DNA from: a virus
Length of the DNA: 26,015 nucleotides
UHGV virus genome: UHGV-0203602
Direction: 5' to 3' (one strand)
A program made the translations under genes and the position numbers. Positions 9,584 through 22,734 of this stretch are shown piece by piece. The notes beneath the pieces are model-generated. The model worked only from the letters and a program-made list of their open reading frames with translations. It was not told where the DNA came from and did not search any database. Position 1 is the first letter of the stretch. Each line of letters begins with the position of its first letter.

Positions 9584-9623
9584 AAGAAAAATAAAAGTAC
9601 CCTCTCTCCTAGCGGAGAGAGGG
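9584..9623 (-). terminator. Intrinsic terminator
   Basis: Stem ccctctctcc / ggagagaggg with a 4-nt loop; T-run on the minus strand immediately after (GGTACTTTTATTTTTC). Confidence 0.7.
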
Positions 9624-9630
9624 GCACTGC

Positions 9631-9900
9631 TTAAAACTTACGACTGCTACCGTAGCAACCACGACCGGCTGTCGTTTTCGCAGCGGTGGCCGGTGCTAAC
9701 GCAACCATCGTTCCATCTGTTTCGATGATGTGTAAGTTACCTGCACGAATCAAACCTTTGAAAGTAATCTTCACGCCTTTACGCAGGCTTTTCACATCAA
9801 AACCTTCAAGCTTGAGTGTTTTAACTTTTTCAGGTTTACCTTCTTCGTGATAAGAAAGAACATTACCTGAACGTTTCTCAACAATGTAAATCTTAGCCAT
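9631..9900 (-). CDS. Hypothetical small basic protein (89 aa)
   Basis: ATG with GGAG 8 nt upstream; first gene downstream of the candidate promoter/operator. Confidence 0.7.
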   Translation of the reverse strand: MAKIYIVEKRSGNVLSYHEEGKPEKVKTLKLEGFDVKSLRKGVKITFKGLIRAGNLHIIETDGTMVALAPATAAKTTAGRGCYGSSRKF

Positions 9901-9923
9901 TTTAGATTACTCCATTTAGTTAA

Positions 9924-9937
9924 GTGAGAATTCTCAC
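9924..9937. promoter_or_regulatory. Perfect 14-bp palindrome GTGAGAATTCTCAC; candidate operator
   Basis: Exact palindrome, sited at the predicted transcription start of the candidate promoter and 24 nt upstream of the ATG of the 89-aa gene. Confidence 0.4.
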
Positions 9938-9945
9938 ATAGATGA

Positions 9946-9974
9946 AATATATCTTAAATTTTTTAGACCGTTAA
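9946..9974 (-). promoter_or_regulatory. Candidate sigma70-type promoter (-35 TTAACG, 17-bp spacer, -10 TATATT)
   Basis: Minus-strand reading: TTAACG (9969-9974), 17 nt, TATATT (9946-9951); AT-rich spacer. Confidence 0.3.
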
Positions 9975-10282
9975 CTGGACAAAGCAATGTTAACCGACTT
10001 ACCAGGCAGCGGGAAATGCTGAAGTTCTATCGATAGAAGTTTCCTGTCAATTGTCAGTATTTCATCAACGTTGGGCGTAAGACGGAATATATCGCGCGGT
10101 AACGTGAAAGGCACGTTCGTCGAGCAGTTATTTAACCGTAACTGTCCCTGAGAATAATCAATCTCTACCACCCTCGCAATTACCCAACGATCGTGAATCT
10201 CGCCGCCTAGAGGTGCAGTTAGTGCCCGTTGCAAGCGCTGTATATTGGGCTCATCAGTATTAGTGCGGTTCTGGCTCGACAT
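9971..10282 (-). CDS. Hypothetical protein (104 aa)
   Basis: Start moved to the internal ATG at 10280-10282 (protein begins MSSQNRTNTD). The track's longer N-terminal extension is Cys-rich and overlaps the upstream gene out of frame. Confidence 0.5.
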   Translation of the reverse strand: MSSQNRTNTDEPNIQRLQRALTAPLGGEIHDRWVIARVVEIDYSQGQLRLNNCSTNVPFTLPRDIFRLTPNVDEILTIDRKLLSIELQHFPLPGKSVNIALSS

Positions 10283-10577
10283 AAATTTCCCCAAACACGT
10301 ATGCGGTTTCTGCTTCATTTGTCGGTTTAGCAACACACCACATCCATTCTTTAGTTTCAGGGTTTTGCCAGGACAACAAATGAACACCGTCACAAATTTC
10401 AGAGGTATCAACCTCTGGGTGGTATAGCATAAATTCGTTTTCGTTGTCATCCGTTACAACAAACTGCCCTTCTTCTACTCGTTGAAACTCAGCAACGCCA
10501 ACTAAAGTTAGCCCGCCTGTGTCATCTAAAGCTACTAGAGTTTTTGGCAAATCACGGTGAATAGCACTTAACCACAT
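10260..10577 (-). CDS. Hypothetical acidic protein (105 aa)
   Basis: ATG at 10575-10577 with GAGGAA 7 nt upstream (the track's start is a TTG five codons earlier). Confidence 0.6.
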   Translation of the reverse strand: MWLSAIHRDLPKTLVALDDTGGLTLVGVAEFQRVEEGQFVVTDDNENEFMLYHPEVDTSEICDGVHLLSWQNPETKEWMWCVAKPTNEAETAYVFGEIYVEPEPH

Positions 10578-10630
10578 CAGATTGTTCCTCAATTAATTTT
10601 GTTTACTTGTGCATAACTACGGCTATACGC

Positions 10631-10669
10631 GTAAAAATAAATACACCCTCTCTCCAAACGGAGAGAGGG
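10631..10669 (-). terminator. Intrinsic terminator
   Basis: Stem ccctctctcc / ggagagaggg, identical to the stem at 9600-9623 but with a different loop; T-run on the minus strand (GTGTATTTATTTTTAC). Confidence 0.7.
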
Positions 10670-14025: not shown

Positions 14026-14054
14026 TTTAATACTCCTTATCGGCCTTCCTCACA

Positions 14055-14098
14055 ACAAAAGAAAAAGTTGTAAAAAGAAAAAGGGAGCCGAAGCTCCC
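14055..14098 (-). terminator. Intrinsic terminator
   Basis: gggagc-cgaa-gctccc hairpin (UUCG loop on the transcript) followed on the minus strand by a long T-rich run. Confidence 0.65.
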
Positions 14099-14816: not shown

Positions 14817-15176
14817 TTAGTGTGTTGCGGTGTTAGTAACAAAACGAATATTCTTCGCGGTACGTTTAAGGGACGTATTTGCAACGTAGTCCAACGCAGA
14901 CTCTACGTGAACCGTTACGGAGCAACGCCCTTTAACGGAATTAAACGTAATCTGATATTTCAGACGAATTGCATCAGCAACCTTCATCATTATCGGTAGA
15001 CTCAGGCGTTCGCTATGATCGTTCTTAATAGATGAAATAACCGATTGTGAGACTTTCGCAAGCTGGGCAAGTTCACGCTGTGTAATGTCTTTCGCTGTCA
15101 AATGACGAATCACGTAAGAGAGATGAAGACCGAATTTACGTTTTGCTAAAGCAATAGAGTTGTGATTGTAAGCCAT
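14817..15176 (-). CDS. XRE-type helix-turn-helix transcriptional regulator (about 119 aa)
   Basis: ITQRELAQLAKVSQSVISSIKN is a typical Cro/C1-type HTH; start placed at ATG 15174-15176 (AGGA upstream) rather than the track's TTG. Confidence 0.65.
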   Translation of the reverse strand: MAYNHNSIALAKRKFGLHLSYVIRHLTAKDITQRELAQLAKVSQSVISSIKNDHSERLSLPIMMKVADAIRLKYQITFNSVKGRCSVTVHVESALDYVANTSLKRTAKNIRFVTNTATH

Positions 15177-15251
15177 GATAATTAATCCTAATCTGTAGAA
15201 CAAGTCGTAAAGAGATTACTGTGTCATCTCACTAAGGTAATATATATCTGA

Positions 15252-15286
15252 GAAAAAATTAAATAGCCCCTACCCGAAGGTAGGGG
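15252..15286 (-). terminator. Intrinsic terminator
   Basis: cccctacc-cgaa-ggtagggg; on the transcript this is a C(UUCG)G tetraloop hairpin followed by CTATTTAATTTTTTCTC. Confidence 0.75.
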
Positions 15287-15973: not shown

Positions 15974-16012
15974 GCGTTCACATAATAGCTATTGGTTGTA
16001 ATAAATTTTAGG

Positions 16013-16049
16013 ATAAAAAAAGAAACCCGCCCCTACCTATCGGTAGGGG
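16013..16049 (-). terminator. Intrinsic terminator
   Basis: cccctacc-tatc-ggtagggg, the same stem as at 15267-15286; T-run on the minus strand (GGGTTTCTTTTTTTATCC). Confidence 0.75.
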
Positions 16050-16056
16050 TAAGGTT

Positions 16057-16662
16057 TTATTGATGGTCAACAATCGGACCACTCCACACTTCTGACGTTT
16101 CCGGTGCGGTAAGATTAGCAGCCTGTGCAGATGGTACACACAGTAAAACTAACCCTTGCTTAGCAAGATAGTGCTGCATTCTTGCGGCCTGTACTGCGGT
16201 GTCCACAATAACGAGCTCAGCGCCACGTAGAAGCGCTAAAGCCGCTTGACCTTCTTGCGGTGTGGTAAACGCGTCTGAGTCGTCCAGAATGCGTTTGAGG
16301 CGGTTATACGCAAGTCCTGTAACGTTACAGTGTTCGGTACGTAAATCAACAACCATTTCGTTATAGACCCCCACAACCTGTTGCGTAGAGTTTGGATAAA
16401 AGCGAAACGAGGCACGACGACGCGCACGACGGACTTCAGAAATCGCACGTTGGAGTACCACTAATACGTACTTCGGTGCTGCGTCTGACGTCGGTCTACG
16501 CATCTTCGCTAACCGCGCTGCCAAATCGAGAACTTTCGTTAACGGGTAGCGGTGCTTAAACCCCTCCCGTTCAATCGTCACCCCACGCTTTGGTAGCTTA
16601 CCGGTTTTGTTGATATACGCCACCGTAATCAGCAGTAATGAGTCGAGAATCATCTCTGACAT
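16057..16662 (-). CDS. Hypothetical protein (201 aa)
   Basis: ATG at 16660-16662 with AGAGGG 7 nt upstream; no recognisable motif. Confidence 0.75.
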   Translation of the reverse strand: MSEMILDSLLLITVAYINKTGKLPKRGVTIEREGFKHRYPLTKVLDLAARLAKMRRPTSDAAPKYVLVVLQRAISEVRRARRRASFRFYPNSTQQVVGVYNEMVVDLRTEHCNVTGLAYNRLKRILDDSDAFTTPQEGQAALALLRGAELVIVDTAVQAARMQHYLAKQGLVLLCVPSAQAANLTAPETSEVWSGPIVDHQ

Positions 16663-16821
16663 CACAATACCCTCTTTAGAACCCCTCGAGAACAGCTTTC
16701 ACAAATTCATAAACCGTGCGTCGGTGTTCTTCAAGTGGATAAACAAACTTAGAATAATCGTTGTTCCAGACACCGGATAGAGGTCGCCATCACAACTTAA
16801 ATAGCTCTTACGAACCATGTA

Positions 16822-17046
16822 TTAATCTAAAGCTACACGGAAGTTTAACGACAGACTGCAGTGTTTACTACAAACGTATAGCTGGAGCGATTTCACACCG
16901 TCACGGGTTGGCGTTTCAATCGTTTCCGCATACAATACATCCGAACACTGTTCTATAACGCTAACGACATCTCTGAGGTTGTTGTGAGCATCAATGGTCG
17001 CTTTTCGGAGAGCGTCGGTGTATTGCTGAAGTTCTCGATAGAACAT
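16822..17046 (-). CDS. Possible small ORF (74 aa); existence and start uncertain
   Basis: Overlaps the 3' end of the upstream 210-aa gene by 94 nt in another frame; the only ORF in an otherwise empty stretch between 16663 and 16952. Confidence 0.3.
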   Translation of the reverse strand: MFYRELQQYTDALRKATIDAHNNLRDVVSVIEQCSDVLYAETIETPTRDGVKSLQLYVCSKHCSLSLNFRVALD

Positions 17047-22650: not shown

Positions 22651-22684
22651 GATAAGTCTCCTTGTTCAAGTCTCACAGTATGAT

Positions 22685-22734
22685 CAAAAATTGTAAAATA
22701 AAAAGAAGAAAACCTCTACCCGAAGGTAGAGGTT
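22685..22734 (-). terminator. Intrinsic terminator
   Basis: aacctctacc-cgaa-ggtagaggtt (C(UUCG)G loop on the transcript) followed on the minus strand by TTTTCTTCTTTTTATTTTAC. Confidence 0.75.

Follow-up and report, generated by a model that had tools for sequence, protein, structure and literature searches.

A divergent copy of a phage promoter motif upstream of an 89-amino-acid gene in a phiKZ-related jumbo phage, with a probable stem-loop at the 5′ end of the transcript

Introduction

According to the review literature, AT-rich promoter motifs can be predicted in every jumbo phage that encodes its own RNA polymerase (RNAP). Here we analyse an element of this kind, which we call site 1 and which lies on the minus strand at positions 9,924 to 9,974 of a 26,015-nucleotide (nt) stretch of the virus genome UHGV-0203602 (the window, that is, all of the DNA analysed), upstream of a gene for a protein of 89 amino acids (aa). 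An earlier note had read it as a sigma-70-like promoter with a repressor-binding palindrome at its start. We argue that site 1 is probably a promoter of a phage RNAP, most like the phiKZ-type virion-RNAP (early) class, and that its transcript would carry a stem-loop at the 5′ end.

The early promoter of the Bacillus phage AR9 reads AAATATATATTAT, followed by any six nucleotides (6N) and the G at which transcription starts (+1), and the starts of phiKZ and phiR1-37 likewise lie 6 nt past the consensus (PMC5312081). In phiKZ an A/T-rich block and the core TATATTAC are followed by 6 nt and then G; sites that we read directly in the first 50 kilobases (kb) of its genome include aattaagataTATATTAC-atgttt-G and TATATTAC-taaatt-G, the latter belonging to gp054, for whose primary start site PMC8244752 reports the motif of early promoters. 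The late promoters of phiKZ carry a TATG initiator whose G is +1 (PMC12809450). According to two further reports, phiKZ does not need the host RNAP for its development (PMC7598289; PMC7618050).

Results

Read on the minus strand, site 1 comprises an A/T-rich upstream element, TCTAAAAAATTTA (9955-9967), a predicted promoter core, AGATATATTTCAT (9942-9954), a 6-nt spacer, CTATGT (9936-9941), that separates the core from the predicted +1, and a perfect palindrome of 14 base pairs (bp), GTGAGAATTCTCAC (9924-9937), the left half of which is a GTGAGA box. The palindrome is followed by TTAACTAAAT and by the Shine-Dalgarno sequence GGAG (9910-9913), which a gap of 9 nt separates from the start codon (ATG at 9900) of the 89-aa gene (9631-9900, minus strand). 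The earlier note had laid out the same ground as TTAACG (its "-35", 9969-9974), 17 nt, TATATT (its "-10", 9951-9946), the palindrome, GGAG and the ATG, and we found every one of these elements where it had placed them. Two points of its reading were also supported: a promoter is very probable here, and the palindrome does lie at the predicted start. TATATT forms the centre of AGATATATTTCAT and is separated from the palindrome by 8 nt, TCATCTAT, and TTAACG overlaps the stop codon of the upstream open reading frame (ORF).

By sequence comparison, site 1 clearly belongs, as a divergent copy, to a phage motif that occurs many times, TCAGATATATATTAC-6N-GAGA; the family consensus is tTCAGATATATATTACyTagGTGAGA with an A-rich block upstream (aAAAATaaTTT, to which TCTAAAAAATTTA corresponds). 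A consensus copy in the window, TCAGATATATATTACCTTAGTGAGA (15227-15251, minus strand), stands before a gene for a helix-turn-helix (HTH) protein of the Cro/C1 type (14817-15176, minus strand; Pfam HTH_3, HTH_37 and HTH_26; PHROG 7126) and aligns without gaps with AAGATATATTTCATCTATGTGAGA at site 1. In this alignment to 15251-15227 the core of site 1 departs from the family core AGATATATATTAC as a "TCAT" sub-variant, reading TTCAT where the family reads TTAC; 10 of the 13 positions are identical and one further difference falls on a position at which the family itself varies between A and T. The same sub-variant was found at four other promoters (in SPN3US, in two other contigs and in pEa_SNUABM_10, where it precedes the orthologous gene). 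Shifted by 2 nt, an alternative core at site 1, TATATTtC, matches the TATATTAC-like core at seven of eight positions.

A weight matrix of 45 columns, made from 39 sites that all came from relatives and not from the window, found both promoters. The HTH gene promoter (15269-15225) gave the best match in the window with 48.5 bits and site 1 (9974-9930) scored 25.3 bits, set against a next best match of -2.0 bits in the window and a maximum of 4.2 bits in shuffled sequence. For a scan of IMG/VR, a first and wider pattern, AGATATAT-N9-GTGAGA, was too unspecific and the tighter core pattern TCAGATATATWTTACYT was used; it gave many matches, in four contigs of the clade and in further contigs of 200-250 kb, and one contig held at least seven copies.

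The closest relatives of the window are these four IMG/VR contigs (L004, L005, L006 and L007; 151-225 kb), in which the 89-aa protein is 83-99% identical, and together with the window they make up a comparison of five genomes. In the 68-nt stretch that runs from GTCTAAAAAA up to the ATG a single column varies among the five, as against 35 of 90 third codon positions in the gene that follows (binomial P ~1e-13), and the entire promoter-leader is under strong purifying selection. The A/T-rich element shows one T/C variation only and the palindrome none. At the "-35" position TTAACG is present in the window, L005 and L007, whereas L004 and L006 have ATGACA there; the part downstream is invariant. 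TATATT is conserved only as a portion of the longer phage motif, and TTAACG is probably not a promoter element to judge by this pattern. It is its conservation and its membership of the family that make site 1 real as an element, since neither the hexamers nor the palindrome rise above chance by themselves. Farther afield, SPN3US, SPAsTU, pEa_29 and Asesino carry the variant TCAGATAGATGTTAT at the orthologous position, which in these four and pEa_10 reads TCAGATAGAT(G/A)T(T/C)AT; in phiEaH2 no promoter was found at this position.

By gene content and protein matches, the window is part of a phiKZ-related jumbo phage that is kin to SPN3US. Megablast with the region found no match among GenBank phages, and relatives were visible only through protein or distant blastn comparisons: the 89-aa protein and its neighbours match phage proteins in GenBank with gene order preserved and identities below 60%, among them those of SPN3US (gp154), Asesino (gp127) and pEa_SNUABM_29. 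The Salmonella phage SPN3US and the Erwinia phages Asesino and pEa_SNUABM_29 are thus syntenic with the window around the 89-aa gene, and the PHROG matches of window proteins lead to families of SPN3US/Asesino-type phages. Four SPN3US genes are annotated as RNAP beta subunit, and two of them, gp232 and gp231, have orthologues in all four close relatives at 70-77% identity, none of them within the window. These were located with a back-translated conserved peptide after a protein-pattern scan had missed them. The clade to which the window belongs accordingly owns genes of a phiKZ-type multisubunit RNAP, as judged by homology, and we infer that it is one of these enzymes that would use site 1.

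This bears on the reading of TTAACG, 17 nt and TATATT as a host sigma-70 promoter with an operator at its start. The hexamers and their spacing match the sigma-70 consensus at 9 of 12 positions (with no TG extension), and ATGACA-17-TATATT in L004 and L006 reaches 10 of 12. Such sites are nevertheless at chance level, with 17 observed in 12 kb and 19.9 +/- 4.2 in shuffles; the -35 hexamer is not conserved while the rest of the element is, TATATT is embedded in a phage-specific multi-copy motif, and the clade encodes its own RNAP, a setting in which the independence from the host enzyme reported for phiKZ, and known for that phage only, also counts against a host promoter. The earlier interpretation is very probably wrong on the polymerase, and we regard the host-promoter explanation as a whole as very unlikely.

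At nearly every site of the family the motif is followed directly by an inverted repeat whose sequence changes from site to site. The transcript of the HTH gene has GAGATGAC-aca-GTAATCTC at its predicted start (15212-15230, minus strand), replaced in relatives by GAGATTAC/GTAATCTC or GAGAGTTA/TAACTCT, and other examples in the family are GAGATTAC-aca-GTAATCTC, GAGAGTTAA-ga-TTAACTCT, GAGCATTGA-atgtc-TCAATGCT, GATAGA-agacaa-TCTATC and GAATGAC-aaag-GTTATTC, the stems measuring 5-11 bp and the loops 3-12 nt. RNAalifold on MAFFT-aligned leaders of orthologous HTH genes returned no structure, the variable loops being misaligned, and so alignment-free statistics were used. We grouped the sites into 47 clusters, with identity between clusters below 70%, and folded the 36 nt from GTGAGA onwards. 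The mean folding energy of the 47 sites was -6.41 kcal/mol, compared with -3.08 kcal/mol for dinucleotide shuffles (Wilcoxon P = 2.5e-9) and -3.04 kcal/mol for control 36-mers taken 90 nt downstream (P = 7e-6 against the 47 sites), and 70% of the family sites folded at -5 or better, compared with 21% of the controls; chance 17-mer matches in unrelated contigs folded at -4.0. In a scan along the locus, strong hairpins peaked at the position of the motif only.

The position of these hairpins and the manner in which they vary both point to the transcript. At 38 of the 47 sites the first paired base lies 0-2 nt from the G of GTGAGA; the predicted +1 G forms the closing pair of the stems, which extend upstream of it no more often (0.35) than under a permutation null (0.36). 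Pairing is kept despite changes in sequence, both at the HTH gene, where GAGAUUAC/GUAAUCUC in three genomes corresponds to GAGAGUUA/UAACUCU in two, and at another gene, where GCGAA/UUCGC is found against GUGAA/UUCAC. Within the family stems, internal pairs that are not Watson-Crick comprise 8 G.U and 1 A.C, a bias expected of a single-stranded structure on the sense strand and not of a protein site on duplex DNA. At site 1 itself the RNA GUGAGAAUUCUCAC is predicted to form a 5-bp stem with an AAUU loop (GUGAG-AAUU-CUCAC) at -4.7 kcal/mol (z = -4.4). A scan of the window against Rfam gave no match, the sole sub-threshold hit being to a small nucleolar RNA model (E = 0.78).

Separately from the genes of the window, five relatives, L161 (from 423), L164, L165 (from 5221), L194 (from 6121) and L200, show a consensus promoter and after it a hairpin of 11 bp, UAGGGRCUGAA/UUCAGYCCCUA, in which several changes between the genomes are compensatory; then comes a second hairpin, CGTTTC..GAAACG, with no ribosome-binding site (RBS) or ORF within 90 nt. 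This locus, which lies outside the window, is a candidate for an early small RNA.

Given the geometry of AR9, phiKZ and phiR1-37, we predict +1 to be the G of GAGA, since the 6-nt rule places it at G15230 for the HTH gene and at G9935 for site 1. An alternative start at site 1 is G9937, if the shifted core TATATTTC or the TATG at 9940-9937 sets the start. The latter resembles the late promoter of phiKZ (PMC12809450), in that TCTATG|TGAG at site 1 would put the start on G9937, where the palindrome begins; unlike it, the family consensus has TAGG or TTAG at this point, and a motif of four bases is too short to test.

Among known systems, AR9 and phiKZ provide close parallels. The family core equals that of the AR9 early promoter at 11 of 13 positions and shares its 6-nt spacing (PMC5312081), although AR9 is a distant relative with a Bacillus host and uracil DNA; the passages of that paper examined for other terms mention no 5′ hairpin, and no search was aimed at hairpins. 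With the early promoters of phiKZ the family shares the A/T-rich block, the core TATATTAC, the 6 nt and the G, and also its occurrence in many copies, before small genes of unknown function and often after a terminator. Site 1 differs from them in reading TTCAT and not TTAC, which makes it a weak match. It is the SPN3US-like group that has the extended GTGAGA box and, at almost all sites, the +1 hairpin; five of seven phiKZ early sites have no hairpin. A generalisation of start-site hairpins to all phiKZ-like phages was rejected on this count. One phiKZ site that does have a hairpin is the promoter of the nuclear-shell gene gp054 (45568-45620), where it begins exactly at the predicted +1 and folds at -8.8 kcal/mol, compared with -3.5 kcal/mol for shuffles.

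The earlier note had seen in the palindrome the classic layout of a repressor-controlled promoter and had named the HTH protein as candidate binder. Transferred to a phage-RNAP promoter, this would mean that a dimeric protein, either the HTH protein or another phage factor, binds the palindrome as duplex DNA and blocks initiation at the 89-aa gene. The dyad is indeed perfect, overlaps the predicted start as lambda and 434-type operators do, and is invariant in five genomes, and 14 bp is the size of 434-type operators; moreover, the HTH gene is driven by a predicted promoter of the consensus early type, so that its product would be made first, and the palindrome reaches 2 bp upstream of the +1 predicted from the register, an extension for which an element acting as RNA alone would have no need. 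Unlike those operators, however, the palindrome is present in one copy per genome in the sequence examined. In the window there is no second exact GTGAGAATTCTCAC and the nearest other match, with 3 mismatches, is no better than chance would give, and a search for copies with at most 2 mismatches in the window and in 53-85 kb (about one third of the genome) from each of the four relatives found only two 2-mismatch matches, in coding regions and again at chance level. Its left half is the box shared by all family promoters, without a matching right half at fixed spacing, and as a dimeric HTH operator needs fixed half-site spacing, the loops of 3-12 nt at paralogous and orthologous promoters, in hairpins of unrelated sequence, count against it.

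Orthologues of the 89-aa gene bear this out. Asesino has GTGAGGAAT-actaac-ATTCCTCtCA and pEa_10 has GGGGAGAA-gattctt-TTCTCCCC before the same gene, with loops of 6-7 nt and with spacing and sequence unlike each other's and unlike those of site 1. SPN3US keeps an orthologue of the HTH protein (39% identity), yet has no palindrome upstream of gp154. The excess of G.U over A.C likewise suggests a single-stranded element on the sense strand. Taken together, the earlier interpretation is probably wrong on the operator, and we consider repression through a duplex site here unlikely.

Perfect 14-bp palindromes number three in the window, where about 1.6 are expected. The other two are TTCTATCGATAGAA (10025-10038), which lies inside the ORF at 9971-10285 about 90 bp upstream of site 1, and CTGTAACGTTACAG (16317-16330).

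The inverted repeat could also act as DNA at initiation, with a hairpin in the non-template strand or an easily melted dyad around +1 aiding opening, start choice or escape. The hairpins are tied to the start site throughout the family, G.T pairs are tolerated in DNA hairpins too, and the stems at site 1, pEa_10 and Asesino begin 2-5 nt upstream of the +1 predicted from the register. A precedent for hairpin promoters is reportedly offered by the virion RNAP of phage N4, which resembles the present case in being a polymerase carried in the virion and in its hairpin-associated promoters. The N4 hairpin, however, precedes the start, is conserved in sequence with a loop of always 3 nt, and serves a single-subunit enzyme, whereas those of the SPN3US-like group begin at +1 and vary. 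Stem length, loop length and sequence range more widely than would be expected of a recognition element, most stems end exactly at the predicted +1 with no more upstream extension than chance gives, and in phiKZ most early promoters that share the core have no hairpin. A role in DNA is therefore, in our judgement, distinctly unlikely.

A host regulator was considered as well, because TGTGAGAATTCTCACT, the only such site in the window, agrees at 9 of 10 positions with TGTGA-N6-TCACA, the core consensus of the cAMP receptor protein (CRP). Here TGTGA arises from the GTGAGA box and the one T that precedes it, which in our view makes the match a by-product, and a host factor is not likely to regulate a phage-RNAP promoter, the more so where the window holds no other CRP-like site. 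That the palindrome is a CRP site is extremely improbable.

The gene downstream of site 1 encodes a protein of PHROG 12339, a family of unknown function. This protein, orthologous to gp154 of SPN3US and gp127 of Asesino, consists of a conserved N-terminal domain of about 65 aa and a variable basic tail. An exact-protein lookup gave no match, and neither Pfam nor a profile search of the PDB returned anything; the domain is predicted, with low confidence, to be all-beta (a single-sequence model with a predicted local distance difference test score of 62.5, which was not used for a fold search). In the Erwinia phage pEa_SNUABM_10 (L266, 392-931) the ~65-aa domain is duplicated in tandem. The gene is followed on its 3′ side by a hairpin resembling an intrinsic terminator, CCCTCTCTCC-GCTA-GGAGAGAGGG with a T run (9623-9600, or in wider limits 9623-9590, minus strand), whose stem is invariant and whose loop is variable in relatives. 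With this terminator-like hairpin, the gene would form a self-contained unit of promoter, gene and terminator.

Terminator-like hairpins on the minus strand of the window fall into sequence families, CCCTCTCTCC-N4-GGAGAGAGGG and CCCCTACC-N4-GGTAGGGG occurring twice each (10646-10669, 9600-9623, 16030-16049 and 15267-15286), again with invariant stems and variable loops in relatives; they resemble the conserved terminator motif reported for phiKZ (PMC10914365). Just after terminators and before three genes we also observed TTACAAY-N13-GTGA(G), on the minus strand at 14048-14073, 22671-22696 and 15976-16001, which is conserved in relatives and may represent a further class of promoter with GTGAG as its start box in common. 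A further motif class in the SPN3US-like group reads (A/G)GATAGATATTAT-6N-G.

Otherwise the window contains structural genes, a Dam-type methylase, a thymidylate kinase and many genes of unknown function. The minus-strand ORF at 9971-10450 is probably two genes, 10260-10592 (PHROG 9789) and 9971-10285 (PHROG 16276), which overlap by 26 nt. Upstream of the ORF at 16057-16665, the 287 nt at 16666-16952 contain no convincing gene, an unusually long gap for so densely packed a window.

Discussion

In the reading that we favour, and hold to be probable, one of the phage's own multisubunit RNAPs, most like the virion (early) enzyme, would recognise the A/T-rich block and AGATATATTTCAT, a core that diverges from AGATATATATTAC (itself containing TATATTAC), and after the 6-nt spacer would start on a G at 9935 or 9937. 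The left half of the palindrome, the conserved box GTGAGA, would then be transcribed first, followed by its complement in the right half. The palindrome is most likely a 5′ stem-loop, and the mRNA of the 89-aa gene would begin with this small stem-loop, or at most 2 nt from one, as a minimal member of the family. To judge by known leaders, its likeliest job would be to shield the transcript against decay that depends on the 5′ end; stabilising stem-loops at the 5′ terminus are found in the T7 phi10 leader (GGGAGA...) and in the ompA leader of E. coli. Site 1 would resemble these in having a hairpin at the extreme 5′ end, on the initial transcribed sequence, upstream of and separate from the RBS, and differs in its stem of only 3-5 bp. 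Alternatively, the stem-loop could possibly be a tag that is read by a phage factor.

Several observations weigh against this reading. The 25.3 bits of site 1 fall just under the weakest training site of the weight matrix (26.4 bits; median 54), and the virion RNAP of AR9 is reported to be sensitive to single deviations from its consensus (PMC5312081). With ATGACA at the -35 position, L004 and L006 would have a rather good sigma-70 promoter. The literature searched holds no mapped start for this phage or for any SPN3US-like phage, so that +1 is a prediction, and its place matters: from G9935 only GAG/CUC (3 bp) would be transcribed, a marginal hairpin, and the full 5-bp stem requires a start at 9937. 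As the palindrome is identical in five of five genomes, site 1 contributes no covariation of its own and cannot by itself separate a constraint on DNA from one on RNA. At the orthologous position SPN3US, SPAsTU and phiEaH2 show no clear hairpin, and in part not even a promoter, and among the phiKZ early sites examined a +1 hairpin is seen at two of seven.

For annotation, the lesson is not to take the AT-rich "-10-like" boxes of jumbo phages for host promoters; here, reading the element as a sigma-70 promoter with an operator would lead to the wrong polymerase and to an invented repressor circuit. From its sequence, the promoter is a divergent newcomer to the known AT-rich promoters of the phiKZ/AR9 type. 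Promoter motifs of SPN3US, Erskinevirus and Machinavirus have so far been predicted and never mapped, and the present analysis provides an explicit consensus with two sub-variants, the second upstream motif TTACAAY-N13-GTGAG, and the prediction that transcripts of the SPN3US-like group begin with a hairpin. In the papers searched on jumbo-phage transcription we found no description of a hairpin closing on +1 in this group.

As a single locus site 1 is ordinary, and the interest lies in the hairpin at the level of the family. A bolder proposal, which we put forward as doubtful, is that SPN3US-like phages systematically start the transcripts of their conserved AT-rich promoters with a stem-loop whose outermost pair lies on the +1 G (GAGA...UCUC) and which could serve as a tag, read by a phage factor that controls export, translation or timed decay of these mRNAs. 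If the clade compartmentalises transcription as phiKZ does, a 5′ mark of this kind, common to the whole clade, could do more than stabilise the RNA passively, and the 14-nt palindrome at site 1 would be its minimal form.

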